DNA of 32,000 nucleotides, taken from NCBI RefSeq assembly GCF_047555085.1, contig NZ_CP180230.1, positions 60,001-92,000 of the forward strand. The letters run 5' to 3'. The first letter of the stretch is position 1, and every line of letters starts with the position of its first letter. The notes beneath the pieces are model-generated. The model was not told the origin of the DNA, ran no database searches, and worked only from the letters and a program-made list of their open reading frames with translations. Positions 1 to 32,000 of the stretch are shown here, one piece after another. Position numbers and translations under genes: made by a program. Origin of the DNA: Candidatus Saccharimonadota bacterium (GTDB lineage Archaea > Nanohalarchaeota > Nanosalinia > Nanosalinales > Nanosalinaceae).

Positions 1-750
1 AACCAGCTAGTTACATCCGCTACAGAAGAGATCAACGTATCTTCGGAGCATTTGAGGCCCGGAATCAATAATTTCAAGGTAGGAACTAACAAGGGAGGCC
101 TCCTGGGATCCACAGAATATGCCTTAGAAGATGTAGAGGCCTATGTGCATGATAGAAGATTCAATGATCACAGGGACAACTTCCAGATATACCAGTACGA
201 GTTAACTGACTTTGTAGGAGCTAATCTAAGCTTCAACATTCCTGTAGATTCTTCAGTAGTTACAGAGCCTCTTGAAATAGATGTCAACGGTAATGAAGTC
301 TTCAGCGAAAGATCTGTAAGATCAGATCAATCTGTATCAATAACACCATCCAACTCAAATCTTAATCCAGGCTACAATACTGTAACTTTCTCAACAGAAG
401 CTAATGCCAGATACACGCTTGAAAATGCGCAGATGGCAGTAAGATATATCGGCACTACGCAAGGAGTTGAAAGAGATCTAGACTTCGAGCTTTCAGAGCA
501 AGATCTATCGTTCGTAGAGCGTGAAACTACTGCTGAAACTCTGAAGTTTGATTACCAGTTCCTTACCGGAGACAGAGAAATCAGGTTCACGTTAAATGAC
601 TATAATACTAGTATAAGTCCTGATAATGGGGAGAACGTTCTAGACATTCCTGAAGAAGTTTTCAGGGAGGATAATACTTTGAGTATCGAGGGGCAGGGAG
701 CATTCACATTAAATGATTTGACTCTTAGCTCCGAGGTGACAGAAGAGTGA
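1..750 (+). CDS. C-terminal part of a hypothetical acidic, probably secreted protein; the CDS enters from upstream of the window
   Basis: Track ORF 52..750 begins at a TTG, but the same frame is open back to nt 1 (NQLVTSATEEINVSSEHL...), so the gene is most likely 5'-truncated by the window edge. The TGA stop at 748-750 overlaps the GTG at 747-749 of the next gene (GTGA), which suggests translational coupling. No family recognised. Confidence 0.6.
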   Translation, partial: NQLVTSATEEINVSSEHLRPGINNFKVGTNKGGLLGSTEYALEDVEAYVHDRRFNDHRDNFQIYQYELTDFVGANLSFNIPVDSSVVTEPLEIDVNGNEVFSERSVRSDQSVSITPSNSNLNPGYNTVTFSTEANARYTLENAQMAVRYIGTTQGVERDLDFELSEQDLSFVERETTAETLKFDYQFLTGDREIRFTLNDYNTSISPDNGENVLDIPEEVFREDNTLSIEGQGAFTLNDLTLSSEVTEE

Positions 751-4450: not shown

Positions 4451-4455
4451 AGTGT

Positions 4456-5466: not shown

Positions 5467-6334
5467 ACACATAATTCTAGGCCTTATAGCGTTTACAGTA
5501 ATTGTATCAGGATGTTCATCAGTTACAGATGCATTACCTTCAGGAAACTCTAATACAGATTCTCAGCCCGAGCAGATACCGGGTAAAGGCCTTGAGGTAA
5601 CAGGTTTCAGTATATCCGATCAGACACTTTCTCCTGGACAGACAGCTGAAGTGACTCTGACGATGCAGAACTATCACAGGGAGGAAATCGAGCTTGGAGA
5701 AGTCACTCTGTATGATCTTGGGCCTCTGCTTACGAAGGAGAAACAGGGATGTACTCCGGATGAAGAAGATCTGGAGGCGGCTACCGATAATGTAAATCCT
5801 ATTATCGAATGTTCATGGGAGCTTACAGCACCTTCAGAAAACATGGTGGGAGGCTTCTCACAGAGAAGCGCATCTTTCACAGCCAACATCCCATATGAAA
5901 CAAGTATTCAGAACTACAGGCCTCTCAAGGTAGAGTTCAGGCCTCTTCAGGATATCAACAGTACCAGTCAGAAGTCTATCTCGTTCACTAACGGCGAAGT
6001 AGATGTACAGGCCTCTGTAGAGACGCCTGTAGCTTTCGGGGAGCAGAAGACGATTTCATTTAATCTGAAGAGAGCTGGAGATGGCCGTGTTGATGAAGAG
6101 TACAGTTTCGATTATCAGCCGGTCGCTGTGTTTGATCTTAACGGCGATGATGAAGTCACAGGCGAAGGTGCAGAATGTCCTGAAAGCGATGAAGTCATTC
6201 TGGGCGGCGGTTTGGACTTCAGCTGCTCTATAAGCATGGAAGGAACGAGTAGCGAGGTAAGAAACGTCTTTTTCACCGCATCTTATAAATACGTCAAATC
6301 TCCAACTTTGGGTATAACTATCGTGAATGAATAA
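5456..6334 (+). CDS. Putative lipoprotein, paralogue 2 of 3 (292 aa)
   Basis: The GTG start overlaps the upstream gene by 11 nt. The signal peptide carries a VSGC lipobox (LIAFTVIVSG/C). The first domain is CARDB-like (VTLTMQNYHREEIELGEV). There are four further Cys. Confidence 0.75.
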   Translation: MDNKHIILGLIAFTVIVSGCSSVTDALPSGNSNTDSQPEQIPGKGLEVTGFSISDQTLSPGQTAEVTLTMQNYHREEIELGEVTLYDLGPLLTKEKQGCTPDEEDLEAATDNVNPIIECSWELTAPSENMVGGFSQRSASFTANIPYETSIQNYRPLKVEFRPLQDINSTSQKSISFTNGEVDVQASVETPVAFGEQKTISFNLKRAGDGRVDEEYSFDYQPVAVFDLNGDDEVTGEGAECPESDEVILGGGLDFSCSISMEGTSSEVRNVFFTASYKYVKSPTLGITIVNE

Positions 6335-7332
6335 TGAATCTAGCTGAGAACAAGACGATTCTGGCACTTCTTTTCGCAACAGTAATAATTTCAGGATGTA
6401 CTGGTGGAGGTTCGACTGAACAGGATACCTCGACTTCAGCAGTGCAGGTAAATGAGTTCTCGGCTTTCCCTAATCCAACGCCTAGTGGACAGAACACAAG
6501 GTTCAGGATGCAGGTAGAGAACGTTGGCGACCACGATGCTGAGAATGTTTACGCACAGCTTTATGGTCCTCCGTTTGCATCTGAGGATGGACAGTCTAAT
6601 ACATGGAGGTCAAGTGGCGGAGATGCTGTAAGTAGCTCCGATAGGCTTCTAGAGTTCTCTGATCTTTCAGCTCCGCAGGAGAATACTCCTTCAACACCTT
6701 CAACTCAGACTGTGACGTTTACAGCTCCTGAACTTGATGACGGCCGTGAAATCGGGTACAATATGCGTGCACGGCTTATGTACAAGTACGGGACTGATGC
6801 GACTTCAGAGATCCAGGTTATGGGAGAAGACGCATATCAGGAGGCAGGTAGTCCTCAGGGATCTGCAACAATCCAGAACGACGATGGTCCTGTACAGATG
6901 GAAATCAGAACACCGACTCCGATAGCTATCTACAACAGCGGACAGGACTCTGTAGAAAAAGAGCTGTGTGTTGTAGTCAGGAATCAGGGAGCAGGAGTGC
7001 CTTTCACAGATGACGATGGCGATGACACAGATGCATTCAAGGGAGAAGGAAACGGATACAATCTGGAAGAAGTTCAGGAACACACCAACAAAGTCAAGCT
7101 TACAATAGAGAATGTTGGAAGAGTAGAGTTCCGGAAAGACGATGACGGAAGTTATGATGAATCTGTTAGCTCCCAGACGAAAGAAATCATAGGAGGAAGA
7201 GCAGTAGTCTGCTGGGATATGAGAATCCAGACAGGAACATCAGCTCTGGATACAACAATCCCTCTAAGCATCGAGAGCACCTACTTCTACAAGCAGGAAA
7301 GCTCCTCAGCAGTCACAGTACAGGGCCGCTAA
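6334..7332 (+). CDS. Putative lipoprotein, paralogue 3 of 3 (332 aa)
   Basis: The ATG overlaps the upstream TAA (aataATGa). The signal peptide carries an ISGC lipobox (LLFATVIISG/C) followed by TGGGS. The first domain is CARDB-like (RMQVENVGDHDAENV). There are two further Cys. Confidence 0.75.
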   Translation: MNLAENKTILALLFATVIISGCTGGGSTEQDTSTSAVQVNEFSAFPNPTPSGQNTRFRMQVENVGDHDAENVYAQLYGPPFASEDGQSNTWRSSGGDAVSSSDRLLEFSDLSAPQENTPSTPSTQTVTFTAPELDDGREIGYNMRARLMYKYGTDATSEIQVMGEDAYQEAGSPQGSATIQNDDGPVQMEIRTPTPIAIYNSGQDSVEKELCVVVRNQGAGVPFTDDDGDDTDAFKGEGNGYNLEEVQEHTNKVKLTIENVGRVEFRKDDDGSYDESVSSQTKEIIGGRAVVCWDMRIQTGTSALDTTIPLSIESTYFYKQESSSAVTVQGR

Positions 7333-7360
7333 AAGGCCTCAACATTTCTCTTATCTCATT

Positions 7361-7376
7361 TTCCCTTTTTCTGTAA
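7361..7376 (+). terminator. Putative oligo-T archaeal terminator after the lipoprotein operon
   Basis: T-rich tract ttcccttttt ctgtaa, 30-45 nt after the stop at 7330-7332. It contains the 10-mer TTTTCTGTAA, which also follows the gene ending at 19575. Confidence 0.45.
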
Positions 7377-7456
7377 AAATTTATCCGGACTATATCTGAT
7401 TTTTCAAGGCCTTATCTGAAAAACATATTTAATTGTTGTTATTTAACGTTGGTAAC

Positions 7457-7900
7457 ATGACAGATGGGGAGGAGGAATCTGAATTTTCAAGACGTGGATT
7501 TGCATATGTTGTAGGAGGCACTCTGGCAGCTACAGCAGCCTCTGGATGGTATCTGAAAGATATTCTTAACGGTATTTTTGAGAAAAGAGATGAGCCGGGA
7601 AACTTTGGGGAATCAACTTCAACTCCGCCGGGAACGCCGGGAGACAGGCCTTCCGATCAAACTTATGAGGATTGGGAGGACGCTATCCCTGCAGGATGCA
7701 GCCTGCCCCAGAGCTACGAGACCGCAATTGAGGAAGAGATCGATAAGTACGACGAGCTTCAGAGTGAAAACCTGACAGAATACGTCAATACTGGAAGAGT
7801 CAAATTCGAGAAAGATGGAACTGAAGGGTACATGATAATCGACGAAGATGATGATGGCCAATACGATCATGGCCGTTCTATTCCAGGAATGTGTAAGTAG
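7457..7900 (+). CDS. Small acidic secreted protein with a twin-arginine (Tat) signal
   Basis: Track ORF 7433..7900 starts at a TTG. I prefer the ATG at 7457, which gives MTDGEEESEFSRRGFAYVVGGTLAATAASG. The SRRGF motif followed by a hydrophobic stretch matches the Tat consensus S/T-R-R-x-F. The mature part is acidic with 2 Cys. Its TAG stop directly abuts the next gene. Confidence 0.65.
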   Translation: MTDGEEESEFSRRGFAYVVGGTLAATAASGWYLKDILNGIFEKRDEPGNFGESTSTPPGTPGDRPSDQTYEDWEDAIPAGCSLPQSYETAIEEEIDKYDELQSENLTEYVNTGRVKFEKDGTEGYMIIDEDDDGQYDHGRSIPGMCK

Positions 7901-7909
7901 GTGGGTGAA

Positions 7910-18347: not shown

Positions 18348-18357
18348 GTTATTGGCC

Positions 18358-18594
18358 TCAATTTTCCTCGAACTTTCCCAGTCTCTCCAGAGTTTCAAGG
18401 ATTCCCCAGGCATAGATAACTGACTCCCAGGCCCGGATAAAATCTTCTTCATCAAGGAAATGATACGTATCTTTCCTGTAGGCCTCAACGTTTTCCATCT
18501 GTTCGACATCTTTATCGAGGCCTTCTACTCTGTCCTCAAGTCTTTCAAGCCATTTCTCTGTCTCTTCCTTGAGTTTTTCCTGAGTCCTATCCAT
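18358..18594 (-). CDS. Small helical protein, probably of the archaeal DUF357 family
   Basis: 78-aa acidic helical ORF. The segment AYRKDTYHFLDEEDFIRAWESVIYAWGILETLERLG fits my recollection of the DUF357 Y-A-x-G-x-L-D/E signature. It is convergent with dphB, with a 10-nt spacer. Confidence 0.5.
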   Translation of the reverse strand: MDRTQEKLKEETEKWLERLEDRVEGLDKDVEQMENVEAYRKDTYHFLDEEDFIRAWESVIYAWGILETLERLGKFEEN

Positions 18595-18614
18595 AAACAG
18601 GCCTGAAAGCGAGA

Positions 18615-18660
18615 CATATAAAAGAATTATCTTTTACTATTGTCATGTAACAATAGGTGA
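18615..18660 (+). promoter_or_regulatory. Putative TATA box, conserved upstream word and SD-like site for the 301-aa gene
   Basis: catataaaag at 18615-18624, TTGTCAT-GTAACA at 18640-18652, and aggtga at 18655-18660, 9 nt before the ATG at 18670. Confidence 0.45.
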
Positions 18661-18669
18661 TTCAAGTTT

Positions 18670-20512: not shown

Positions 20513-20537
20513 AAACAGTTCTATAGCCCTGAGAAGG

Positions 20538-20554: not shown

Positions 20555-20574
20555 TTTAAGATAAAACATACTTC

Positions 20575-22452: not shown

Positions 22453-22504
22453 AATCATCAATTTCTGTGGAGAGAGCGATCTCTCCCAGTCATTTCCATC
22501 TCAG

Positions 22505-22517
22505 TTTTATTAATTAA
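22505..22517 (+). promoter_or_regulatory. Putative TATA box for a leaderless 95-aa gene
   Basis: ttttattaattaa is centred about 25 nt upstream of the ATG at 22536. Confidence 0.45.
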
Positions 22518-22535
22518 GACTTCTAATTTCACACT

Positions 22536-23265: not shown

Positions 23266-23284
23266 AAGGGCTTAATGCATTTAA

Positions 23285-24898
23285 ATGAGGAGACTAAACA
23301 ATTTACGTATGAAAAGGAAGATTCTGGCTCTTTCCGGATTTCTAACATCAATAACAGCCTCTGCATCAGCACAGGTTACAGGAGGGTCAGGTGAAATTAC
23401 TTCCGTATTCGCCATACTAGGCCAGGTACTGGGGATAGATATAGGCAATCCCTACAGCGCACTGGCACTTCTAGCTACTCTAGGTATAATGTCTCTTTCT
23501 ACCTACATCGTTCTGAAAGAGGCCTTCAAGAAAATGGATATGCTTGATACGGTACTACCGGGAAGCGGCCGTAACGGAGGAGGCAGAAATATTCTGGCAC
23601 TTCTATCCGTTCTTATAACATTAACAATATTCGGTACAGGAGCTGCAGCAGGCATAATTCAGGGATTCCAGGCAATATTCCTTCTTGGATTCGTATTCAT
23701 GATGATAGGAGGAGGAGTATTCATCATGATCGGTGGATCAGGAATGATTCTAGGAGGAGGGTCCAAGGCAATGGGTAAGTTCTCCAAAGATGCAGCTGAA
23801 GGGATATCTGAAGGTATGGAAGCCGTAGGAGAGATAGATGATATACTGGGAACAGCAGAAAGAGAGGCACAGGACGGTGCGGAAAACAATGATGAAGAAG
23901 AGGAAGAAGAGGCCGCTGAAAGGATAGAGAGGGCGCTTGAACTGATGAATGAAGTACTAGTCAACACTGCAGGAGATCTTGACTCAAAGAGAAATGAAGT
24001 AACAGATGCTGTAGGGAAAGTAGAAGAGGCTATAGGCCTGGAAGAAGACGAGTTTGAACAGCTTGGATACATCGACCAGCGCTTCAAGAGAGCAAATATC
24101 TTCCTTCATGAGGCCTCACAGGTAGTAGAATCTTCAGGTCCTGGAGGATCAGATCTGTTGAATGGAGAAGGAGCATTTAATCTTACTGATGACTGGTCTG
24201 ACCAGATCAGCATTGGAGCTTTACAGGGAATAGAAGGATTACATAAGAACAGTCCTGGTATGTCTGCTTCGGATCTTTACGGCCTTGCAGGAGTCAGAGA
24301 GGATTTCGAGAAGATCAATCAGTCCCTGGATATGATGACTGAGGAGCTCAGTGAAGAAGAGGGCGATATGGCAGAGGCCTTCCAGGAGCTCGTTGATGCA
24401 GTTGAGGCTGCTGTCGGGTATCATGAGATTCTTCAGGATCTTGGAGAATTGCTTGATGAAGCAGAGAGGGACGATGAGATGCTTGAACAGCTTGCTCAGT
24501 CCAGAGATTGGCGCAGACTTTACAATGAAGCTGATCACGAGGAAGATGAGGAGAGGCAGCTTGAGAACAGGAAGGCCGAGATTACAGGAGAGGAAGATGC
24601 TTTGAGAAGCGAGCTTAACTCTGCTGTAAATCTTCTGAAGAAGCATTTGCAGGAGGATGACAGGATTATCCAGGAAATAAGAAATGAGCTCGAAAACGAT
24701 GAAAGAAGTATTGAAGACGCTCTGTCAACGCTTTCAGGCGAGCTTGAAGGCACAGGCTACGAGTCTGCTCTTGGAGAGCTTGATAATATGCTGGCATCTA
24801 TAGAGGCCAGAATCGAGCGCATAGAAGATGAGGATATAAATGAAGAACAGAGGGAGAGAGAAGTTATCCAGCAGGCTCAGCAACATCTGGAAGGATAG
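23285..24898 (+). CDS. Polytopic membrane protein (537 aa) with a long acidic C-terminal coiled-coil domain
   Basis: The signal-like N-terminus is MKRKILALSGFLTSITASASA/QV if the ATG at 23309 is used. Four or five Gly-rich TM segments follow (FQAIFLLGFVFMMIGGGVFIMIGGSGMILGGG). After them come ~370 aa rich in E/D/L with heptad character (EDALRSELNSAVNLLKKHLQEDDRIIQEIRNELENDERSIEDAL). Confidence 0.8.
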   Translation: MRRLNNLRMKRKILALSGFLTSITASASAQVTGGSGEITSVFAILGQVLGIDIGNPYSALALLATLGIMSLSTYIVLKEAFKKMDMLDTVLPGSGRNGGGRNILALLSVLITLTIFGTGAAAGIIQGFQAIFLLGFVFMMIGGGVFIMIGGSGMILGGGSKAMGKFSKDAAEGISEGMEAVGEIDDILGTAEREAQDGAENNDEEEEEEAAERIERALELMNEVLVNTAGDLDSKRNEVTDAVGKVEEAIGLEEDEFEQLGYIDQRFKRANIFLHEASQVVESSGPGGSDLLNGEGAFNLTDDWSDQISIGALQGIEGLHKNSPGMSASDLYGLAGVREDFEKINQSLDMMTEELSEEEGDMAEAFQELVDAVEAAVGYHEILQDLGELLDEAERDDEMLEQLAQSRDWRRLYNEADHEEDEERQLENRKAEITGEEDALRSELNSAVNLLKKHLQEDDRIIQEIRNELENDERSIEDALSTLSGELEGTGYESALGELDNMLASIEARIERIEDEDINEEQREREVIQQAQQHLEG

Positions 24899-24912
24899 GC
24901 CTGATTTTCTTC

Positions 24913-24924
24913 TAATTATTTAAA
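24913..24924 (+). promoter_or_regulatory. Putative TATA-box promoter element (TAATTATTTAAA) for the 754-aa gene
   Basis: The 12-mer taattatttaaa is centred about 29 nt upstream of the ATG at 24947. An identical 12-mer recurs at 27312-27323. Confidence 0.5.
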
Positions 24925-24946
24925 CCGGGAGAGGAAAGTATGTACT

Positions 24947-27211
24947 ATGGCGGATTTCGGTGGAGTTGATGGCTCGGCTTTTGATGAGGCCTATGAAATC
25001 CTGAGTCAGGAAAATCAGGAGACTATAGAGGCCTATCGTCATAATTCGCCTACACATGAACAGATTAACCATATTGAAGAAGTGCTGAATATTCTACGTT
25101 CTCTTAGAGGAGACATCAGTCAGGGCCTTGAAGATCAGTCTAGAGAGATGGATGATGCTATAAGCAATCTTGAACAGGTGACAGGCCTTGATCGAGAGGA
25201 AGATGATCTTGCCCATCAGCTTGAATCACAGTGGGAGGATTTTGAGAGAAAAGTCACGGAGGAGTTTGAAAGAGCACAGGCCCAGAAAACTTCACGTACT
25301 CAGAAGATGCGGGAAGGTATTGGGTCACGATTTTCGGGAGTTTTCGGCGATGATGAAGAGGATGATTCCAATTCAGCGGAGGATTCCGGAAGAGCACAAT
25401 CCATAGTATATTATCCTGATCAACTGGAGGCCCAGTTAGCTACTATGGAACAGAAGTTCCTGAATCCTCTTTTACGTAACGAGGAGCAGAAAACAGAGCA
25501 GGAGCAGGCCCTGAAAAATCTTACACAGGTACTGGAGACTTCAGTTGAACTCCATCAACAGGCTAACAAGTACAAAATGATTCTTCTGAAGGCCAAAAAC
25601 GATGTACAACTACAGGAGCAGCTTGCAGAACAGTCCCATATTGACTGGTTCAATCAGGAAGTTATGGAGGCAGGTTCTCAGGAACAACGGCTTGAGAGAC
25701 AGGTAGAAGAAGTTATGAACGCTGAAAAAGCGTTAGTCGATAGATTTGAAGAGGCCTCTAATTTGATTCAGGAGATACTGAATATCGATCAGGATATAAT
25801 GGATACTATCTCGGCAAATTCCGGTGAGAAAAAAGGCCGTGCACAGAAAGCTATAGGATCCTTGACTTCCGGAGAAAATACCGTAGTAGATATGCTAGAG
25901 TTCATTAACAGTGTACACTCTGAGAACGATTATTCGATTGTTGCTCAGAGGATAAATGACGGTATCAGACCTAAAATAGCACAGATTCAGAGAATGGAGG
26001 ATACGGATATACGTCGGGAGCAGAAGCTCGCTGAAGAAGTCGAGGACTACGTTGCAGAGCACAGAAGACTTTTCGAGCAGCAGCAAAATGAAATTGAACA
26101 GGAGGAAAGAAATCTTACACCGGAAGGCCCTGTAGATGATGCTAGGAACGGTGCACCGCCAGGGACGCGTGAGTTTATACAGAAGATAGAGGAGTTGAGG
26201 GATCTCATGAATCAGGGTATTCTTGAGGATCTAAGAAATGCTGAACAGAATTACAGAAGAGTGTACAGGATTGATCAGGACGAAGTCGAGAACGTAAAAG
26301 ATTTCGAAGGCAGAGCTCAGAAGCTTTCAGATGATCTTGGGAGGATAGAAGAGGATTTCAGGGATAAAACTCCGTTTGAAAACGCGTATCAGGCCCAGGA
26401 TGGCTCAAAGCGCCTGAAGATGGAGATGGAGAAGCTGATGAACGGAGAGGATCCTTTCAGTGCAGGCCTCAGGCCTGTAGCTAATCTTATTGAACAGCTT
26501 CAGGCAGATCTACAGAAAATATATTCTGATGAAAGTGAGGAAAGAAATCACTTCCAGTCTGCACATGAGTCTCTTCAGCAGGAAGTTGTAAGGATTCGAG
26601 AGGTTATCGCCGCAGTAGATGAACTTGAATCAATGGTTGAAGAGTTCCGGGATCCAGATCATCCACGCAACAGTGTGAACGGAGAATCACATCCATACAG
26701 AGCATACCACGATGCCTTCCTGGCGGCCAGCAGAACATTGTTCGATGGAAATGATAGGGAGGTCCAGCAGCGTTTACACAATTTGATCGGTAGTATTGTA
26801 GAATGGATAAACAATCTTGAACAGGAAATAGAAAGGCTAGATGGAGTAATGAGCGAGGTAATCAATGAAGAGGATATCGAGATAAATGCCTTCAAGAATG
26901 AAATCGAAGTCCTGCAGAGAATGCTTGAGATGCTTGAGGAAACATTCCAGGGAGATATTAACGAGCCTATACCCAGTCCTGTAAGCCAGAAAATTGATCA
27001 AATAGACAAGGCCTTGAGAAAGATAGAGGAGAAACTGGAAGATCTGGAGTCAAGAAAAGAAGGAGAGGAAACAGAGTTCGAAAACGAGGAAGATTTCTTT
27101 GGTGATCTGGGCGACGACATGGATACTGCTTCAGATGAGGCAAATACTGTATTCGAGGAGGATGAATCAATGTTCGACGAAGAATTTGACGACGATTTCG
27201 GAGAATTCTAG
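24947..27211 (+). CDS. Soluble hyper-acidic coiled-coil protein (754 aa), unknown function
   Basis: No TM or signal peptide. E/D/Q/L-rich heptad-like sequence runs throughout. The N-terminus is MADFGGVDG and the C-terminus is EDFFGDLGDDMD...FDEEFDDDFGEF. Confidence 0.8.
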   Translation: MADFGGVDGSAFDEAYEILSQENQETIEAYRHNSPTHEQINHIEEVLNILRSLRGDISQGLEDQSREMDDAISNLEQVTGLDREEDDLAHQLESQWEDFERKVTEEFERAQAQKTSRTQKMREGIGSRFSGVFGDDEEDDSNSAEDSGRAQSIVYYPDQLEAQLATMEQKFLNPLLRNEEQKTEQEQALKNLTQVLETSVELHQQANKYKMILLKAKNDVQLQEQLAEQSHIDWFNQEVMEAGSQEQRLERQVEEVMNAEKALVDRFEEASNLIQEILNIDQDIMDTISANSGEKKGRAQKAIGSLTSGENTVVDMLEFINSVHSENDYSIVAQRINDGIRPKIAQIQRMEDTDIRREQKLAEEVEDYVAEHRRLFEQQQNEIEQEERNLTPEGPVDDARNGAPPGTREFIQKIEELRDLMNQGILEDLRNAEQNYRRVYRIDQDEVENVKDFEGRAQKLSDDLGRIEEDFRDKTPFENAYQAQDGSKRLKMEMEKLMNGEDPFSAGLRPVANLIEQLQADLQKIYSDESEERNHFQSAHESLQQEVVRIREVIAAVDELESMVEEFRDPDHPRNSVNGESHPYRAYHDAFLAASRTLFDGNDREVQQRLHNLIGSIVEWINNLEQEIERLDGVMSEVINEEDIEINAFKNEIEVLQRMLEMLEETFQGDINEPIPSPVSQKIDQIDKALRKIEEKLEDLESRKEGEETEFENEEDFFGDLGDDMDTASDEANTVFEEDESMFDEEFDDDFGEF

Positions 27212-27311
27212 TTCCTGTATACAGGCCTCAATACTTTCCGTTTCGATTAAAGCTACGTTCTTTACGCAGTATAGCCATTCAGAGGCCTCTAGTTGCTTTC
27301 TATTACTGGTT

Positions 27312-27323
27312 TAATTATTTAAA
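27312..27323 (+). promoter_or_regulatory. Putative TATA-box promoter element (TAATTATTTAAA) for the small-membrane-protein operon
   Basis: This 12-mer is identical to the one at 24913-24924 and lies 41 nt upstream of the ATG at 27364. It is followed by aggagg and agaggt, which could act as SD-like sites. Confidence 0.45.
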
Positions 27324-27363
27324 GGAGGAAAGGCAAATTCTAGGTATAAAGAGGTAATAAAGA

Positions 27364-27507
27364 ATGGCGACAATGCAAACTGTGATGACTCAGGTCATGA
27401 ATAATCCGACTGTATTTATTGCAGGCCTGGCGATTGGATATATTGGAGCTAAACTCCAGAGAAAGCTCGGCCGTAACAGCGGCGGCTTTGGCGGAGGTGG
27501 CTTCTGA
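27364..27507 (+). CDS. Mini membrane protein (47 aa) that is not in the supplied ORF track
   Basis: My translation is MATMQTVMTQVMNNPTVFIAGLAIGYIGAKLQRKLGRNSGGFGGGGF. It has one hydrophobic helix and a basic patch followed by a Gly/Phe tail. Its TGA at 27505-27507 overlaps the ATG at 27507 of the next gene (tgATG-type coupling). Confidence 0.5.
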   Translation: MATMQTVMTQVMNNPTVFIAGLAIGYIGAKLQRKLGRNSGGFGGGGF

Positions 27508-27767
27508 TGGCAGATAAGAAATTCCACAGATATCTATACGATATCGAAAACTGGATTGACGAAGTTGTCATCGCAGTTCTTTCATTCGGAGCGATCTTTG
27601 TCGCAACGTATGTAATGTTCATAGCACCTGGCCAGATCAGTTTCCTGGATCTAGGGAACACTCTTGAGCCATGGATCACGATGCTCGCACTGATGATAAT
27701 CGGAAGAGAGCTTTGGCTGATCAAGAATGCGATGTACCAGAAATGGGACATCGAAGAAGGTGAATAA
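27507..27767 (+). CDS. Small two-TM membrane protein (86 aa)
   Basis: Hydrophobic segments VVIAVLSFGAIFVATYVMFIA and WITMLALMIIGRELWLI. The gene is translationally coupled to its upstream neighbour and lies 4 nt from its downstream neighbour. Confidence 0.65.
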   Translation: MADKKFHRYLYDIENWIDEVVIAVLSFGAIFVATYVMFIAPGQISFLDLGNTLEPWITMLALMIIGRELWLIKNAMYQKWDIEEGE

Positions 27768-27771
27768 CTGA

Positions 27772-28392
27772 ATGGTGCAGTCATTTGGAGGCCTAATGGA
27801 GACACTTACAGGGATAGACTTCTTTACAGGCCTTCTTCCATTCGTTATTACTTATACTGTATTTTTCTTCATACTGAGATATCTAGCTTCAGAAGTACTT
27901 TTCGATGGCTGGGATGACAACAAGCCAGATCAGTTCGCAGCTATTCTATCGATAGCGTTTGCCTTCTTCACGGCTAACTTCATACTGAATCAGCCGTGGG
28001 CAGCAGCATTCTTCTCACAGTACCTGGGAAGACTTACAGTGATCATAGTAGGCCTCTTAGGATTACTGGCCTTGCTAGGATTCGTCGGAATAGATCTTGA
28101 CAGCAGCAAGACCGGTGTAGGATGGGTGATGGCGTTACTTGTCATTGCAGCCTTTGCAGTATCCGGTGGAGTCAGTTCAATCCTGCCGGTGTCAAGCAGG
28201 AATGCTGCTATAGCATACCTGTCCAATGGCCTCACATACATGATTGACTCAGGCCTGATCTTCCTAGTACTGATCGCAGGACTGCTCTATTACACAATGA
28301 GAGATCCAAGCAGTGGCAGCAGCGAAAGAATGCAGTGGTTCACACCTTTCGGAGGAGTTCAGAAAGGTGGCGACGATGAAGATGGGGGGTAG
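27772..28392 (+). CDS. Polytopic membrane protein (206 aa), paralogue of the next gene
   Basis: About 5 TM segments. It aligns by eye with the 162-aa protein (GIDFFTGLLPFVITYTVFF vs MGFRLFLPWLLVLAITYGLL; LSIAFAFFTANFILNQ vs IALAMAFFTILGVNQ; IIVGLLGLLALLGFVGIDL vs FGLFGLLGLMILIAVTGYDM). It ends in an acidic Gly tail (GGDDEDGG). Confidence 0.75.
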   Translation: MVQSFGGLMETLTGIDFFTGLLPFVITYTVFFFILRYLASEVLFDGWDDNKPDQFAAILSIAFAFFTANFILNQPWAAAFFSQYLGRLTVIIVGLLGLLALLGFVGIDLDSSKTGVGWVMALLVIAAFAVSGGVSSILPVSSRNAAIAYLSNGLTYMIDSGLIFLVLIAGLLYYTMRDPSSGSSERMQWFTPFGGVQKGGDDEDGG

Positions 28393-28404
28393 GTGATTCA
28401 TTAG

Positions 28405-28893
28405 ATGGGAGCCTTTGAGATAATAATCCAGACAATGACAGAGATGGGCTTCCGTCTATTCCTACCTTGGCTTCTTGTCCTAGCTATAACCTACGGTCTT
28501 CTGGAACAGTACGAGATAATAAGCAGTGAGACACAGGTAAACGGCTCCATCGCTCTGGCGATGGCTTTCTTCACGATTCTTGGAGTTAACCAGTACGCTC
28601 CAGCAGGCATATTCACTAACTTTGCGGCTGCGATGGCTTTCGGCCTCTTTGGGCTTCTGGGATTGATGATTCTTATCGCTGTAACAGGCTATGATATGTC
28701 GCAGTTTGCAGAGAAAGGTACGCCACGCTACTTTGCATATACTATCTTCATAGTATCATTCATCACGATCGTAGTAACATATGTGGATATAGGGACAGTA
28801 GTAGGAGAGGGCATGAACGCCTTCAATGATGTAATCCTGCCAATACTGATCCTGATCTTCTTCATACTGCTTGTAAGAGAAACCACAAAGTAG
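28405..28893 (+). CDS. Polytopic membrane protein (162 aa), paralogue of the previous gene
   Basis: About 5 hydrophobic segments. See the alignment words listed for 27772..28392. Confidence 0.75.
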   Translation: MGAFEIIIQTMTEMGFRLFLPWLLVLAITYGLLEQYEIISSETQVNGSIALAMAFFTILGVNQYAPAGIFTNFAAAMAFGLFGLLGLMILIAVTGYDMSQFAEKGTPRYFAYTIFIVSFITIVVTYVDIGTVVGEGMNAFNDVILPILILIFFILLVRETTK

Positions 28894-28981
28894 AGGCCTT
28901 ATTTTCTAGGCATATCAGTAGTATTGAAAGAAGCAGTCAAGTTTAGAAAAAAGAGAGATATAAAGAAAAGAGGCCGTTTTT

Positions 28982-29830
28982 CTATTCCGACCTGAATGCA
29001 TCCATGTCGATATCATCGACTTCCTGATTCGACACGGAGCTATCTGTTTCAATACCCTGTTCTCTTTTTATCTCCTGTACAAGGCCTGTCAGGTCACGGA
29101 TGTTGTCTACAAGGGATGGAAGAATCTGCTGGAAGGCCTTCTCCAGGCCTCCGATCCGTGATTCATAGGAATCAATATGGTCTTCAACTTCGTCCATCTT
29201 CTGTACGAATTCTTTCTGATCTTCATCGTCTCTTACTTCCAGATCATGTACACGACTGTCAAGTTCTTCCAGTTTCTCCTCTATCATATCGAGTTCAGAG
29301 TACACGTTCTGGAACTCTGTCTCCACTTTCTGGAAGTTCTCTGCAATTATTGTTTCGATAAGCTCCTCGATCTGAGGGTCTACTGTATTTTCACCGGTCT
29401 GTAGCTGTGGCTGATTCTGCTGATTCCCGCTACTTTGCTGTGTCTGTTGCTGCATCTGCTGGTTCTGCCCTTGGTTCTGATTTTGGTCTTCCTGGTTGTA
29501 GCCTTCGTCCATAGGACTTACAGCCTCGTCGTCTCCTTGGTATGGGCTCATTGGTTCTGGTCCTCCGCTGTTTGAATCTCCGGTTGCCGAAGAGGTCACC
29601 ACGTTGTTGATTGCTCTGTTGATGTCATCCGATGAGTACTGTCCCTGCAGCTCGTTTCTGATCTGATCTTCATCGTATCCCTGCTTGAACATTCCCTTTA
29701 CAGTTCTCTTCAGGTTTCCGCCTCCAACTTGGCTGATACTTTGCTGCTGTTGGGACTGAGAACTAGAGTTGCCGGACTGACTGTTGCTGTCATCATCGTC
29801 TTTTAATCGTCCGAAAAGCTTGAAATCCAT
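28982..29830 (-). CDS. Q/N-rich low-complexity protein (282 aa) with a C-terminal acidic coiled coil
   Basis: The N-terminus is MDFKLFGRLKDDDDSNSQSGNSSSQSQQQQS. A short helical module follows (KQGYDEDQIRNELQGQYSSDDINRAINNV). The Q/N tract reads QEDQNQNQGQNQQMQQQTQQSSGNQQNQPQLQ. The coiled coil reads ELDMIEEKLEELDSRVHDLEV...IGGLEKAFQQILPSLVDNIRDL. Confidence 0.75.
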   Translation of the reverse strand: MDFKLFGRLKDDDDSNSQSGNSSSQSQQQQSISQVGGGNLKRTVKGMFKQGYDEDQIRNELQGQYSSDDINRAINNVVTSSATGDSNSGGPEPMSPYQGDDEAVSPMDEGYNQEDQNQNQGQNQQMQQQTQQSSGNQQNQPQLQTGENTVDPQIEELIETIIAENFQKVETEFQNVYSELDMIEEKLEELDSRVHDLEVRDDEDQKEFVQKMDEVEDHIDSYESRIGGLEKAFQQILPSLVDNIRDLTGLVQEIKREQGIETDSSVSNQEVDDIDMDAFRSE

Positions 29831-29872
29831 GGTTTAACCTCTTAGTACTTGAAAATCAATTTGTGATTGCTC

Positions 29873-30325
29873 CTATTTAACTTCACTGTCTGTATCGGCG
29901 TTTTCACGCTTCTGCTCTCTCAGTTTCTTCTCCACAAGTGACTCAACTTCGTCCTTTGAAACGTAGTCTTCCTCGATCATCTCCCGCACCTCTTTCTCAG
30001 TCATGAAAGATGAATTTATAGGGTTCATGAGGTTCATGTAGTTCTCTATCTCATCCAGTTCCTGAGAAGTCACGAACTTTCTTTTCTCCCTGTTAATGTT
30101 CTTTATATCAACTTCAAGGTTTGCCACACGATCGCTTAACTCATTGACGTCATTTTCCAGCTCCTGTATATCCTCGCTGTTGGACTCCGTCTTGTTCATA
30201 ATGGTGTCATCAAGAGTATTAACTCTCGCAGAGAGGTTCCTGATCTTCTCTTCCAGGTCTCGGACTCTTCGATTGAAGTCGTTAACCCGGTCAACTACCT
30301 GGTTTATGATATTCTGCTGTGGCAT
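29873..30325 (-). CDS. Small coiled-coil protein (150 aa), possibly FlaC/ArlC-like
   Basis: Heptad-rich sequence (VRDLEEKIRNLSARVNTLDD, IQELENDVNELSDRVANLEVDIKNI) is followed by ENYMNLMNPINSSF. This loosely recalls the coiled coil plus YE..s..NPF ending of the archaeal FlaC domain. The gene is divergent from the ATPase gene (43-nt spacer) and upstream of the Q/N-rich gene. Confidence 0.7.
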   Translation of the reverse strand: MPQQNIINQVVDRVNDFNRRVRDLEEKIRNLSARVNTLDDTIMNKTESNSEDIQELENDVNELSDRVANLEVDIKNINREKRKFVTSQELDEIENYMNLMNPINSSFMTEKEVREMIEEDYVSKDEVESLVEKKLREQKRENADTDSEVK

Positions 30326-30368
30326 CCCTACCTAACCTTTTACCAATGCTCAAATAACAATGTTAGGT

Positions 30369-32000
30369 ATGGACGTAAAAAACAAGGATGTATTCGACTA
30401 CGAATACGACGACGAGACAGGAACAGTCGAAATCAACATGCTTGGATCGATCTATGGGGCCTCTATAGAGGATTATCCTGAAGTCATGTCCCGTGTAATC
30501 AACATTCTACAGGAGATCCCGGAAGCAGGAAACGTAGTACTATCCGAATCAAGAGAATATGAGTATGAAGAAGATCAGATAAGGCTTCTAAGAGAGATAG
30601 CGAACGCAGTAAGAGATATTTCAGCACAGGGATATCTTTCACAGGATATAAAGAGAGATAAATGCAGCCAGCTGTACGATCAGCATCTACCGGAAGTACA
30701 GAGAATAGTATTTGACAAGTTAAGGAGAGATCCTGTAGGGGCCTACGTCAAGCTTATTAGAAAGGAAAGACACTTGAGACAGGATAAAGACCATGCGTAT
30801 CCTCAGCAACAGCGCTGTATCAAGTATTTTATACAGGATGTGATTAAACCTGTCAAAAACACTCTGGAACAGTGTGAAATGATTCAGAGAGCACAGGACT
30901 ATCTTACAGGATATCACGTTGGCGATAGAGAGATCTACAGGGAATTTTTCCACCCTCTTGTAAGGCCTAACTTTATGCTTACAAAGTACATGTCTCTTCC
31001 TCCTGAAAGAGGAGAGGAGAAAACTAGATATACTGTAAGAGACGATATCGAAGTTTCTGTGTATGAAGTCCCTGATCAAACAAGGCCTGTATATCACGTT
31101 GATCCCCCGGAGTTCAATCTTCCTGAGGAGAAATACAAACTCTTGGATGCAGCTAGACGTTTCATGGCCTCTCACAAGCCGGATGAAGGAGAGTTCGCAA
31201 GGCCTGAAAGAATGAATGAAGTCTTCGAGAACATCGGCAGGGACATGCTGAGAGATATTGCGAATCAGATGGGCCTCAAACTTTCACTTGACGAACTCGA
31301 CAAGCTTACAGATATACTTAACAGATATACTTCAGGCCTGGGAGTACTAGAGATTCTTTTGACTGATCCAAAAGTACAGGACGTCTACATTAACTCTCCG
31401 ATCGGAGATGCTCCGATTTACATTACGCATCAGGACTTTGAGGACTGCGAGACAAATCTTATTCCAACAAAAGAGGAGGCCGAATCCTGGGCCACACGCT
31501 TCAGGATCCAGTCTGGAAGGCCTCTTGACGAAGCAAATCCTGTTCTCGATACAGAGACAGAGGTACAGGGAGGCCGTGCCCGTGTAGCAGTAATACAGGA
31601 AAATCTCTCTCCTTCAGGCCTTGCATTTGCTTTAAGGCGCCACAGGTCCCGTATATGGACGCTTCCACTGTTTATACAGAATGGAACTATAAATTCTATC
31701 GGGGCAGCAGTGCTTTCCTTCCTTGTGGATGGTAATCGTTCGCATCTATTCGCAGGGACGCGTGGAGCAGGAAAGACGTCTCTTCTATCAGCTGCTATGC
31801 TGGAAATCATGAAAAATCATCGTATAGTTACTGTAGAAGATACTCTGGAGCTTCCTATACCTCAGATGAAGGATCTGGGATACAATATAGAAAGGATGAA
31901 ATCTCGCTCTGTAATTACGCAGGTTGAAAATGAAATGAGTGCGGATAATGCTATTCGTACCTCTCTCCGTCTTGGAGACTCTGCGCTTGTTATTGGAGAG
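30369..32000 (+). CDS. Type II/IV secretion-family ATPase (archaeal FlaI/ArlI-PilB / GspE / VirB11 superfamily), 3'-truncated by the window end
   Basis: This ORF is not in the track because it runs off the end. I translated 544 codons from the ATG at 30369 without meeting a stop. Family blocks include RYTSGLGVLEILLTDPKVQDVYIN, EEAESWATRFRIQSGRPLDEANPVLD, GGRARVAVIQENLSPSGLAFALRRH, Walker A GTRGAGKTS (31755-31781), VTVEDTLEL and LRLGDSALVIGE. The N-terminal domain is long, about 330 aa. Confidence 0.88.
   Translation, partial: MDVKNKDVFDYEYDDETGTVEINMLGSIYGASIEDYPEVMSRVINILQEIPEAGNVVLSESREYEYEEDQIRLLREIANAVRDISAQGYLSQDIKRDKCSQLYDQHLPEVQRIVFDKLRRDPVGAYVKLIRKERHLRQDKDHAYPQQQRCIKYFIQDVIKPVKNTLEQCEMIQRAQDYLTGYHVGDREIYREFFHPLVRPNFMLTKYMSLPPERGEEKTRYTVRDDIEVSVYEVPDQTRPVYHVDPPEFNLPEEKYKLLDAARRFMASHKPDEGEFARPERMNEVFENIGRDMLRDIANQMGLKLSLDELDKLTDILNRYTSGLGVLEILLTDPKVQDVYINSPIGDAPIYITHQDFEDCETNLIPTKEEAESWATRFRIQSGRPLDEANPVLDTETEVQGGRARVAVIQENLSPSGLAFALRRHRSRIWTLPLFIQNGTINSIGAAVLSFLVDGNRSHLFAGTRGAGKTSLLSAAMLEIMKNHRIVTVEDTLELPIPQMKDLGYNIERMKSRSVITQVENEMSADNAIRTSLRLGDSALVIGE

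Follow-up and report, generated by a model that had tools for sequence, protein, structure and literature searches.

What makes a single restriction-type palindrome, the hexamer AGGCCT, the commonest six-letter word in a stretch of archaeal DNA, and does the excess belong to the word itself? The DNA analyzed here (the window, 32 kb in all) comes from the chromosome of the DPANN nanohaloarchaeon Candidatus Nanosalina sp. VS9-1, four proteins of the window being identical to proteins of that organism. Besides this window, a single syntenic locus was sampled from each relative.

Abundance and anatomy of AGGCCT in the window

An exact recount gave 115 copies of AGGCCT (3.6 per kb), the very number that the original prediction had reached by eye; it is the top hexamer of the window, ahead of ACAGGA with 60 copies. 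Composition had been predicted to yield only five to seven copies, and indeed the mononucleotide expectation is 6.1, the first-order Markov expectation is 7.6, and 100 dinucleotide-preserving shuffles of the window gave a mean of 8.02 (standard deviation, 2.62; maximum, 16), about 41 standard deviations under the observed count. Markov models of orders 2, 3, and 4 expect 23.6, 55, and 107 copies, but they approach the observed count because AGGCC and GGCCT are mostly parts of AGGCCT itself; as the fit is circular, high-order models, including the fifth-order one that the original prediction had suggested, are uninformative for this word. A codon-preserving shuffle had been proposed as a check. 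When synonymous codons were shuffled within each coding sequence, with the protein and codon usage kept, 14.8±3.3 copies were obtained (maximum, 24), and a shuffle of codon order gave 8.0±2.9, versus 101 observed. These counts confirm that AGGCCT is some 15 to 20 times too common throughout the window.

An excess of this size, 115 copies versus 6.1 to 8.0 expected, is of the order of magnitude that characterizes the highly iterated palindromes (HIPs) of cyanobacteria, and it survives the controls for protein and codon usage, as that class requires. The one-base neighbors of the motif, predicted to be several-fold rarer, number 0 to 17 copies each, all 18 being at least 7-fold rarer than AGGCCT, and 115 of the 206 copies of GGCC lie inside the hexamer. 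Avoidance of a restriction site under a restriction-modification (R-M) system needs an under-represented palindrome and was rejected, since AGGCCT in the window shows the opposite sign. A restriction-type palindrome is likewise over-represented rather than avoided in Helicobacter pylori, where CCGG is in excess despite a cognate R-M system, the cause being unexplained (PMC4687349); there, however, the magnitude is merely about 1.4- to 1.5-fold.

The 115 copies are dispersed over positions 1 to 32000 and, given without strand, start at 96, 137, 797, 863, 1022, 1163, 1640, 1818, 3018, 3197, 3248, 3693, 4008, 4068, 4632, 5301, 5479, 5587, 5918, 5939, 6009, 7334, 7407, 7646, 8046, 8300, 8539, 8685, 8726, 8841, 9279, 9750, 10050, 10311, 10403, 10485, 10788, 11065, 11126, 11438, 11556, 11832, 11958, 12133, 12820, 12886, 13067, 13102, 13540, 13822, 14263, 14622, 14912, 14999, 15055, 15697, 15837, 15983, 16050, 16347, 16665, 16693, 16953, 17393, 17505, 17568, 17666, 18005, 18101, 18337, 18480, 18518, 18599, 19220, 20086, 20189, 20281, 20502, 20582, 20795, 20936, 21380, 22631, 22676, 22839, 23252, 23520, 24034, 24111, 24375, 24897, 24987, 25029, 25183, 25752, 26464, 26471, 27009, 27223, 27283, 27423, 27789, 27828, 28050, 28251, 28894, 29082, 29134, 29145, 30963, 31083, 31200, 31334, 31518, and 31616. 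AGGCCT is a bare hexamer, found in all phases, on both strands, and in genes and spacers alike, with unconserved flanks (at most 0.14 bit per position), as HIPs are. Codon phases 0, 1, and 2 of the window open reading frames (ORFs) hold 20, 40, and 43 copies, respectively; the predicted examples of each phase, all on the plus strand in ORF 7901-13114, are AGG CCT (Arg-Pro, 8300-8305), gAG GCC Tat (Glu-Ala-Tyr, 8046-8051), and agA GGC CTt (Arg-Gly-Leu, 8539-8544). Genes of both strands carry the word, as had been claimed, with 80 copies in plus-strand and 23 in minus-strand genes, in proportion to gene length.

The original prediction also held that the word is at least as dense between genes, and its density is 3.5 per kb in long ORFs versus 5.3 per kb outside them, where the starts include 7334, 7407, 18599, 27223, 27283, and 28894, the six sites that it had quoted. 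The copy at 7334-7339 lies one base past the stop codon of ORF 6334-7332 and is followed by a T-rich tract; the same place is occupied in the orthologous genes of three relatives (L001, L002, and L130). The copy at 7407-7412 precedes the start of ORF 7433-7900 by 21 nt, that at 27223-27228 is 12 nt past the stop codon of ORF 24947-27211, and that at 28894-28899 abuts the TAG stop codon of ORF 28405-28893. At 24897-24902 the word overlies the TAG stop codon of ORF 23285-24898 (gaTAGGCCT), again ahead of a T-rich tract. Such placement directly past a stop codon and ahead of a T-rich tract was seen in 11 of 150 genes, a modest excess.

The extended palindrome AGAGGCCTCT occurs at all seven predicted places, namely, 8683-8692, 9277-9286, 10483-10492, 11554-11563, 14261-14270, 25750-25759, and, between genes, 27281-27290. 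With flanks so weakly conserved and the commonest 10-mer present in only seven copies, an interspersed repeat element of the REP, MITE, or CRISPR-like kind was rejected; the window had no Rfam matches. Spacing over the 32 kb is exponential (coefficient of variation [CV], 1.04), counts per gene fit a Poisson distribution (chi-square of 21 with 24 degrees of freedom), and the count per gene has no significant relation to protein conservation. The closest pair (26464-26476) has starts 7 nt apart. The longest motif-free stretch (29151-30962; starts 1818 nt apart) covers coiled-coil genes adjoining archaellum-like genes and falls within the tail that about 114 exponentially distributed gaps should produce, and gaps of more than 1.2 kb between starts are slightly more numerous than expected (four versus about 1.5).

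The word in proteins and among relatives

Within the window genes, 20 of 24 Arg-Pro dipeptides are spelled AGGCCT, and the word is present in 40 of 57 [KEQ]A[SYFLCW] tripeptides and 41 of 65 xGL tripeptides. Across nine enriched loci the corresponding fractions are 87/109, 248/358, and 244/396, compared with 7/81, 14/206, and 38/395 in 13 non-enriched loci; motif-compatible peptides are therefore spelled with the word in 62 to 80% of cases in enriched lineages versus 7 to 10% in non-enriched relatives. The peptides themselves are 1.8-fold commoner in enriched lineages (15.9 versus 8.9 per 1,000 amino acids), indicating that the DNA signal shapes proteins, as had been predicted of a frame-independent signal. 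Outside ORFs, 58 copies were found in 10.5 kb of enriched loci, where 1.2 are expected, versus 1 copy in 18.7 kb of non-enriched loci. The excess is thereby shown to belong to the DNA word itself and not to codons, peptides, or a repeat element. The recount and the codon- and peptide-preserving shuffles both support the selection or drive that the original prediction had read into the excess, and the comparison with relatives strengthens that case.

Among the relatives, we have shown that at least four nanohaloarchaeal clades are enriched, that some lineages are intermediate, and that many close relatives are at background; the proposed comparison of motif densities thus bore out the excess in several clades and failed to find it in many other relatives. 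Densities of 2.3 to 5.05 per kb were found in the window and in L001, L002, L130, L134/L009 (SG9), L143, L144, L145, L148, L215, and L219; intermediate densities of 0.6 to 1.8 per kb were found in L137 (M3_22), L210 (Nanohalovita BNXNv), L147, and L220; and the density was 0 to 0.4 per kb in about 17 further nanohaloarchaeal loci. Only about half of the sampled nanohaloarchaeal lineages have the trait. Some relatives avoid the word or its core, with only 7 copies of GGCC in 21 kb of N. constans and no AGGCCT in L135. Comparable enrichment was absent from about 125 loci of other archaea (0 to 1.1 per kb), the two densest being short contigs that hold 2 and 7 copies. No earlier report of an AGGCCT excess was found in the literature searched.

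In the pooled enriched loci, AGGCCT is 15.6-fold above non-enriched relatives and 8- to 30-fold above each of its 18 neighbors, transversion neighbors included. When enriched loci are set relative to non-enriched relatives, its one-base deviants are biased to the outer positions (1.8-fold on average): outer variants are at 1.3- to 3.05-fold, with AGGCCC/GGGCCT up 3.05-fold, and inner variants are at 0.5- to 1.3-fold, while GGCC with neither AGGCCT flank is unchanged. AGGCCT shares this outer-position bias with HIP1, whose one-base deviants are likewise outer-biased according to Elhai (PMC4390886).

Possible causes of the excess

The reading that we prefer, and to which we give about even credence, is that AGGCCT reflects a fixation bias of the HIP type known from cyanobacteria, lineage specific and acting autonomously at each site; the bias is probably linked to a factor, such as a DNA methyltransferase, that recognizes AGGCCT or GGCC and has been gained or lost repeatedly. 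Every potential site would be under an equal fixation bias toward the full hexamer, with log-odds of about 3 to 4, alike in coding opportunities and in spacers. Such a bias could arise by molecular drive, through biased repair or gene conversion favoring the motif-carrying strand. Poisson spacing, together with a bias that is equally strong within genes and between them, favors a drive acting site by site over a function dependent on a particular density, and we infer that molecular drive is a better fit than selection at thousands of separate sites.

The driver would be a putative sequence-specific factor, repeatedly gained or lost. To our knowledge, no repair system favors a whole hexamer. 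Following Elhai's proposal for HIPs, the likeliest candidate is a DNA methyltransferase of the StuI type (AGGCCT) or one with a GGCC core, acting with methyl-directed repair or recombination. Genes for DNA methyltransferases, restriction enzymes, and Vsr-like proteins were absent from the window and from about 40 syntenic nanohaloarchaeal loci; the REBASE entry for M3_22 holds one type II methyltransferase. The describers of Ca. Nanohalovita BNXNv list only a type III R-M system (PMC10266531), although AGGCCT is at intermediate density in its sampled locus, an observation that counts against the preferred reading. The AGGCCT methyltransferase of A. borkumensis modifies the second C (PMC12128166), and its detection by SMRT sequencing suggests m4C; the 1,674 copies in that genome are not a strong enrichment, so that having a cognate methyltransferase is not by itself enough to enrich the site. 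REBASE had predicted AGGCCT as the target of an M. thermoacetica enzyme that turned out to make m4C at GGGCCC (PMC6700114).

The HIP-type fixation bias has its closest parallel in HIP1 (GCGATCGC), for which methyltransferase-linked repair, selection, and an uptake signal have all been proposed as the mechanism (PMC4390886, PMC5861425, bioRxiv 10.64898/2026.06.24.733823). Both words are short GC-rich palindromes that are at least 15-fold over-represented, are dispersed in all frames and in spacers, shape codon choice, are lost or replaced in some lineages, and have outer-position deviants. HIP1 is an octamer at about 0.5 to 2.5 per kb, nearly phylum-wide in cyanobacteria and reported to be quasi-periodic (10 to 90 kb), with known cognate methyltransferases; in contrast, AGGCCT is a hexamer of DPANN archaea at 2.3 to 5 per kb in enriched loci, is exponentially spaced over 32 kb, is confined to about half of the sampled nanohaloarchaeal lineages, and has no methyltransferase gene beside it in the window or the syntenic loci. 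Closer in form are GGCGCC of Calothrix PCC 7103 and, in other cyanobacteria, rCCGGy and GCsGC: GGCGCC, too, is a 6-nt palindrome and restriction-type site with an observed-to-expected ratio of about 15 to 20 in sporadic lineages, but these words belong to single bacterial genomes, whereas AGGCCT occurs in several archaeal clades. Hexamer HIPs with such ratios co-occur with a cognate methyltransferase, one of matching specificity being found in each alternate-HIP genome by Elhai (PMC4390886).

It is rather unlikely, in our judgment, that AGGCCT is a DNA-uptake or recombination tag akin to the DUS of Neisseria and the USS of Pasteurellaceae, in which case a surface or recombination protein would prefer AGGCCT-bearing DNA, conspecific fragments richer in the word would be taken up or recombined more often, and the word would spread by molecular drive. 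Those words are also accumulated by drive in all frames, alter peptides, and are lineage specific, and AGGCCT resembles them in its independence of frame, its presence in genes and spacers, and its effect on peptides. Known uptake sequences, however, are 9 to 12 nt long, are not palindromic, occur about once per kb, and are more even than random, and for DUS and USS the receptor and competence machinery are known. We know of no uptake sequence or natural competence in DPANN archaea, nor of competence in nanohaloarchaea in particular. A 6-nt palindrome with exponential spacing is not a word of the DUS/USS kind, and at 3.6 per kb an extra copy should add little, yet most opportunities are filled. 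For such a tag speak the frequency of the word past stop codons ahead of T-rich tracts, its patchy but clade-coherent distribution, as expected of a gained or lost receptor, and the current proposal that HIP1 serves as a signal for uptake or transformation (bioRxiv 10.64898/2026.06.24.733823; 10.1101/2024.09.10.611283). Nanohaloarchaea also have giant VirB4/TraG proteins of a T4SS-like kind, as well as loci of the pilus or archaellum type (PMC10266531).

Direct selection on each copy appears more doubtful still; the word would then be the binding site of an abundant DNA-binding protein (in the nucleoid, segregation, or global regulation) or a dense self-marking methylation site read by a defense system. 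According to Xu et al., selection and not repair keeps HIP1 in place, and HIP1 is linked to chromosome structure (PMC5861425). The AGGCCT excess is strongest in spacers, and VS9-1 and SG9 share 12 of 19 AGGCCT positions (63%) versus 10 to 15% for control hexamers, or 10 of 11 given identical residues. Independent saturation predicts this sharing, no enriched pair compared being closer than about 72% nucleotide identity, a distance at which conservation and convergent saturation are inseparable. The Poisson spacing and per-gene counts, with only a modest stop-codon preference, likewise argue against a selected function, and close relatives manage wholly without the word. Extrapolation from the window gives about 3,700 sites per 1 Mb, each needing log-odds of about 3 to 4, which would be a heavy demand in the presumably small populations of an obligate symbiont.

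There is little to recommend very-short-patch repair of the Vsr or Mig type as the sole cause, and we consider it highly improbable. An m5C methyltransferase at GG(m5C)C, with a T:G endonuclease or glycosylase, would turn AGGTCT or AGGCTT into AGGCCT. An archaeal precedent is the GGCC methyltransferase and T/G glycosylase Mig.Mth of Methanothermobacter plasmid pFV1. In Escherichia coli, Dcm/Vsr likewise shifts oligonucleotide frequencies genome-wide by methyltransferase-linked repair (CCWGG-related words), but its effects are few-fold at most and confined to T-to-C related words, whereas AGGCCT is up 15- to 20-fold as a whole hexamer against all neighbors. AGGTCT/AGACCT is at 0.53-fold of the level of non-enriched relatives (P = 3e-7), with a ratio below 1 for each of the three enriched clades, as such repair would have it; this deficit, however, largely tracks a general deficit of GGT/GGTC in all flank classes (0.3- to 0.4-fold in the Nanosalina clade, 0.8- to 0.85-fold in the other clades), no context-specific depletion of deamination products is apparent once general GGT usage is allowed for, and AGGCTT, at 0.92-fold, is not depleted in enriched loci. 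A single-position bias raises the motif only against its C-to-T neighbors, yet all 18 neighbors are far rarer, and the AGGTCT and AGGCTT pool of about 0.7 per kb is too small to supply the extra 3.4 per kb. The A. borkumensis enzyme, the one AGGCCT methyltransferase with a mapped site, probably makes m4C and would yield no T:G mismatches. Dcm-like methyltransferases do exist in nanohaloarchaea (PMC11001535), but conversion from transition neighbors alone is inadequate, and of the four candidate mechanisms in the original prediction, it is this one, acting alone, that the data argue against.

A trivial cause (an assembly or adapter artifact, a repeat family, or halophile codon and amino acid usage) deserves almost no credence, for although acidic halophile proteomes are rich in GAG- and GCC-type codons and Markov orders 3 and 4 absorb most of the excess, that fit is circular, the excess recurs in independent assemblies (NCBI isolates and metagenome-assembled genomes, TARA/ENA, and JGI) with copies in frame within conserved genes and unconserved flanks, and the reading is refuted by the protein- and codon-usage-keeping shuffles and by equally halophilic relatives of the same GC content that are at background.

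Meaning for nanohaloarchaea

For 30 years, palindromes in such excess have been a puzzle of cyanobacterial genomes, without agreement on a mechanism. By its likeness to them, AGGCCT is an archaeal counterpart of the HIPs, extending the phenomenon to another domain of life with a different word, a StuI-type hexamer, and at a higher density. A DNA-level force respells most compatible codons and nearly doubles certain di- and tripeptides, affecting an estimated 1 to 2% of residues in a symbiont genome of about 1 Mb. Close nanohaloarchaeal lineages differ in having the trait on, half-on, or off, and complete genomes or cultures exist for several of them (VS9-1, SG9, M3_22, Nanohalovita BNXNv, and Nanohalobium constans); through this contrast, phylogenetic profiling can find the driver gene, and the methylation hypothesis can be put to the test. 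In practice, AGGCCT density also serves as a marker when nanohaloarchaeal contigs are binned or mobile elements are to be connected with their nanohaloarchaeal hosts.

More speculatively, and with low confidence, AGGCCT may be a putative self-recognition tag of certain nanohaloarchaeal lineages, in which a dedicated recognition protein, horizontally acquired several times, would bias uptake, recombination, or repair toward tagged, perhaps methylated, DNA. If so, these ectosymbionts with their reduced genomes could use the tag to distinguish their DNA from the GC-rich DNA of their haloarchaeal hosts and to exchange genes with one another. Archaea would then have their first sequence tag of the uptake or drive type, and the nanohaloarchaea would offer a tractable natural series of gains and losses for solving the HIP problem.

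Abundance and anatomy of the motif in the window

An exact recount gave 115 copies of AGGCCT in 32,000 bases, the very number that had been estimated by eye, and a mononucleotide model predicted 6.1 copies, within the 5 to 7 anticipated from composition; every coordinate quoted for individual copies was correct on rechecking. AGGCCT was the commonest hexamer of the window, the runner-up having 60 copies, and dinucleotide-preserving shuffles (n = 100) contained 8.0 ± 2.6 copies, with a maximum of 16. The tetramer GGCC occurred 206 times, 115 of them within AGGCCT, and every other NGGCCN word was present at 17 copies or fewer. The 18 one-off neighbours, of which the original prediction had described those at the outer positions as several-fold rarer, were found at only 0 to 17 copies each. 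Markov models of order 2, 3 and 4 predicted 24, 55 and 107 copies, a rise that occurs because the subwords AGGCC and GGCCT are mostly copies of the motif itself. High-order and maximal-order Markov tests, including the proposed fifth-order model, were rejected because copies of the motif make up the pentamers, so that the observed/expected ratio approaches 1 by construction.

The sequences flanking the 115 copies carried at most 0.14 bit per position, with a mild symmetric bias in which T was disfavoured at -1 and A at +6. The commonest 10-mer around AGGCCT was the extended palindrome AGAGGCCTCT, with 7 copies, as listed earlier. Since the flanks are uninformative and the commonest 10-mer is so infrequent, AGGCCT is a bare word and not a repeat element. 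An extended-palindrome or hairpin element was also considered and rejected, complementary -1/+6 flanks being only marginally in excess (41 of 115 copies, ~31 expected).

Distances between copies were exponentially distributed (mean, 276; median, 180; CV, 1.04), and the number of copies per gene matched a Poisson distribution (chi2 21, 24 df) and had no significant relation to protein conservation. The claims made for placement also held: all three codon phases were used (20, 40 and 43 copies in phases 0, 1 and 2), counts in genes of both strands scaled with gene length, and noncoding DNA was at least as dense, with 5.3 copies/kb outside long open reading frames (ORFs) and 3.5/kb within them. 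One "intergenic" stretch, 18348-18669, has copies at 18480, 18518 and 18599 but probably contains an unlisted short gene, judging from a DUF357 ORF of 79 to 81 amino acids at this place in relatives; some copies counted as noncoding would therefore be coding.

Four proteins encoded in the window match proteins of "Candidatus Nanosalina sp. VS9-1," a DPANN nanohaloarchaeon, with full-length identity (WP_414837851, 856, 858 and 867). The window encodes a DUF63 membrane protein, a Trm5/Taw2 tRNA methyltransferase, a diphthine-synthase-like TP_methylase, large Ig-like/CarboxypepD_reg surface proteins, and coiled-coil genes adjoining an archaellum- or pilus-type locus, among them a FlaC-like coiled-coil protein (28982-29830). 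The 3' end (27507-31810) resembles part of such a locus and has small conserved ORFs; in relatives, a T2SSE/FlaI-type ATPase sits just past the matching region. This region also contains the longest interval of the window without the motif, 29151-30962. No tRNA genes or Rfam families were detected in the window with ARAGORN and Rfam, and an association of AGGCCT with RNA genes or tRNAs was rejected on that basis.

Distribution among nanohaloarchaea and other archaea

Relatives were collected by exact homologue look-up, a profile scan that sampled one genome from each GTDB species, and a scan of JGI metagenome contigs, and their syntenic Trm5 loci were compared over up to ~21 kb each; GC content was 40 to 50% throughout. 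Strong enrichment (2.3 to 5.05 AGGCCT/kb) was observed in the window (3.6), in SG9 (3.5; identical loci L009 and L134) and in the loci L001 (4.7), L130 (4.4), L002 (2.9), L144 (3.7), L143 (2.9), L145 (5.05), L148 (2.3), L215 (4.2) and L219 (4.0). Intermediate densities were found in M3_22 (L137; 1.8), "Ca. Nanohalovita haloferacivicina" BNXNv (L210; 1.4), L220 (1.5) and L147 (0.6). About 17 other nanohaloarchaeal loci, including those of Nanohalobium constans and SW_7_43_1, were at background (0 to 0.4/kb), as was a Nanosalina metagenome-assembled genome (MAG) whose Trm5 is 65% identical to that of the window. Some 125 loci from other archaea (Archaeoglobi, Methanosarcinales, Thermoproteota and other DPANN) had 0 to 1.1/kb, and the top two (0.83 and 1.07/kb) were short contigs with at most 7 copies each.

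A neighbor-joining tree of Trm5, crude and based on this single gene, placed the enriched loci in at least four clades with nonenriched clades between them; this interleaving indicates that the trait is clade coherent and was acquired or lost on several occasions. In BNXNv and M3_22, both complete genomes, the GGCC totals (116 and 128 per 21 kb) matched those of enriched lineages, AGGCCT itself occurred 29 and 37 times, and the half-sites AGGCCN and NGGCCT were elevated. Decay, build-up or a less specific driver could account for these blurred flanks.

In codon alignments of orthologues, motifs of the window were also AGGCCT at 38 of 60 positions in L001 and 12 of 19 in the distant SG9, compared with 10 to 15% identity for control hexamers. 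Where the residues were identical, AGGCCT was shared in 32 of 35 and 10 of 11 cases, respectively, against ~30% for controls. Because most opportunities are filled in every lineage, the sharing of positions equals that predicted by independent saturation and is no evidence of conservation. Enriched genome pairs were ~68 to 72% identical in DNA, none being closer than ~72% besides the two identical SG9 assemblies, and no Trm5 pair exceeded 88% identity.

Several relatives strongly avoid particular restriction-type words: N. constans (L008, CP040089) has only 7 GGCC in 21 kb (~45 expected), L145 (MAG D1M06_93) has only 2 CTAG (46 to 80 in other loci), and L135 lacks AGGCCT (3.9 expected). This avoidance suggests that restriction-modification systems specific for GGCC, CTAG and perhaps AGGCCT circulate in the phylum.

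When viral contigs were scanned for three AGGCCT copies at short gaps, the matches listed were mostly chance occurrences or tandem repeats. A small viral or plasmid-like contig of 6654 bp with a rolling-circle Rep (L014, IMGVR_UViG_3300025172_000014; PF23343) had AGGCCT as its joint commonest hexamer (13 copies), with three copies at 28 bp spacing repeated at both ends, an arrangement resembling terminal redundancy or an array of iterons. Two IMG/VR viral contigs of 36% GC were rich in scattered copies of AGGCCT and TTAAGGCC, L010 with 13 in 3.6 kb and L081 with 8 in 5 kb (~0.1/kb expected), and may be an unrelated case of enrichment of the same word.

Imprint on coding and spacer sequences

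When synonymous codons were permuted within genes, which keeps both protein and codon usage, the coding sequence of the window retained 14.8 ± 3.3 copies compared with the 101 present, and permutation of codon order left 8.0 ± 2.9. Peptides able to be spelled with the motif were mostly so spelled in the window: 20 of 24 Arg-Pro (RP), 40 of 57 [KEQ]A[SYFLCW] and 41 of 65 xGL. Pooled over nine enriched and thirteen nonenriched loci, the proportions were 80% versus 9%, 69% versus 7% and 62% versus 10%, respectively, giving odds ratios of 15 to 42 (log-odds of 2.7 to 3.7). Motif-compatible peptides were themselves commoner in enriched lineages (15.9 versus 8.9 per 1,000 residues), so that protein sequences have shifted towards the motif, as expected of the DNA-level signal originally proposed to shape them.

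Outside ORFs of at least 100 codons, a mask that leaves some short genes scored as noncoding, enriched loci had 58 copies in 10.5 kb (37% GC; 1.2 expected) and nonenriched loci had 1 copy in 18.7 kb. Wherever a sequence can vary freely, then, the bias has much the same strength. This uniformity, together with the Poisson statistics, points to a process that acts on each potential site independently and not to a function met by a given density or spacing.

Among 150 genes of enriched loci, 11 had AGGCCT at offsets -2 to +1 of their stop codon, with ~3 expected from spacer density, although several cases are orthologous and represent fewer independent events than 11. They were found in the window (7334, 24897 and 28894; also 27223) and in L001, L002, L130, L143 and L145, in most cases ahead of a T-rich tract resembling a terminator.

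Candidate mechanisms

In this study, we have shown that the AGGCCT excess is real, very strong, frame independent, locally uniform in the genome, lineage specific and reshapes coding sequences. We infer that the most likely mechanism is a molecular drive, in which heteroduplexes or replication errors would be resolved with a bias towards the strand with the full AGGCCT. The mediator would be a sequence-specific factor repeatedly gained or lost by nanohaloarchaeal lineages, most plausibly an AGGCCT- or GGCC-core DNA methyltransferase acting together with methyl-directed repair or recombination, along the lines suggested for the highly iterated palindromes (HIPs) of cyanobacteria (PMC4390886). 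Drive is preferred to selection on each copy because extrapolation from the density of the window gives ~3,700 sites per genome, each with log-odds of about 3 to 4, because the organism is an obligate symbiont, and because close relatives do without the motif altogether; this preference is a plausibility argument. The drive model has a weak point in that we know of no repair pathway that favors a whole hexamer. The fetched loci yielded no cognate methyltransferase: Pfam, NCBIfam, PADLOC, catalytic-motif regular expressions and phmmer with an M.HaeIII query (an approximate sequence) found no DNA methyltransferase, restriction enzyme or Vsr in the window or in ~40 nanohaloarchaeal loci, nor did any protein of the window resemble a mismatch nuclease. 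The partly enriched BNXNv has been reported with a type III system only (PMC10266531), which is a weak point of the methyltransferase model.

The main competing explanation, a tag for uptake or recombination, would fit a frame-independent motif, its patchy distribution, the modest excess just past stop codons, and current thinking on HIP1, the best-known HIP (bioRxiv 10.64898/2026.06.24.733823; 10.1101/2024.09.10.611283). However, a 6-nt palindrome at 3.6/kb with random spacing fits such a tag poorly.

A Vsr-like repair drive, one of the candidates in the original prediction, may contribute but cannot be the cause. Between 180 kb of enriched and 273 kb of nonenriched DNA, the twelve inner-position variants of AGGCCT (six reverse-complement pairs) occurred in the former at 0.5 to 1.3 times their nonenriched frequency, the six outer-position variants (three pairs) averaged ~1.8 times, with AGGCCC/GGGCCT at 3.05 times (p = 2e-13), and GGCC with neither correct flank was equally frequent in both. 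Deviants are concentrated at the end positions, like those of HIP1 (Elhai; PMC4390886). The first-C deamination product AGGTCT/AGACCT was at 0.53 times in enriched DNA, as a Vsr-like process would predict; however, this deficit largely tracks a general shortage of GGT/GGTC in all flank classes (2- to 4-fold in the Nanosalina clade; 15 to 20% in other clades), and the second-C product AGGCTT was not depleted. Moreover, a one-position repair bias raises a motif only relative to its transition neighbours, whereas AGGCCT stood 8- to 30-fold above every neighbour in the pooled enriched loci, and the pool of neighbour words is too small to supply the excess. In addition, m4C, the mark suggested for the AGGCCT enzyme of Alcanivorax borkumensis, does not create T:G mismatches. 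That enzyme acts on the second C (PMC12128166), and its SMRT detection suggests m4C, on our own reading; an enzyme of Moorella thermoacetica predicted in REBASE to recognize AGGCCT turned out to be specific for GGGCCC and to form m4C (PMC6700114).

The GGT/ACC depletion, which is clade specific, forms a second compositional signal and is not accounted for by AGGCCT. The window, L001 and L002 had 6.9, 3.5 and 4.2 GGT/ACC per kb, against 11 to 14 in SG9 and nonenriched relatives, a 2- to 4-fold depletion whatever the flanking context, and GGC was not correspondingly raised in the Nanosalina clade after AGGCCT was masked. Other words also varied. In an AGGCCT-enriched set (the window, L001, L002 and L009), compared with L004, L006, L007 and L008, the GATC-containing palindromes TGATCA, ATCGAT and CGATCG were ~2.5-fold and GATC 1.7-fold commoner. 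AGATCT and CTGCAG were 3- to 4-fold over expectation in the window, and AGATCT was over-represented in nonenriched relatives too.

Open-access papers and bioRxiv (covering AGGCCT or GGCC in nanohaloarchaea or archaea, strain VS9-1, nanohaloarchaeal methylomes, HIPs and over-represented palindromes) contained no prior report that we could find of AGGCCT enrichment in nanohaloarchaea or other archaea, and an earlier mention elsewhere is possible. The published nanohaloarchaeal methylome, from a different genus, has the motif GDGCHC (PMC11001535; PMC10266531), and surveys of restriction-site representation report over-representation of only ~1.4-fold (PMC4687349). The excess described here is HIP-like, yet AGGCCT is a hexamer, is denser and is archaeal. 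Its spread among sequenced and cultured relatives, in which it is on, intermediate or off, makes this system unusually informative.
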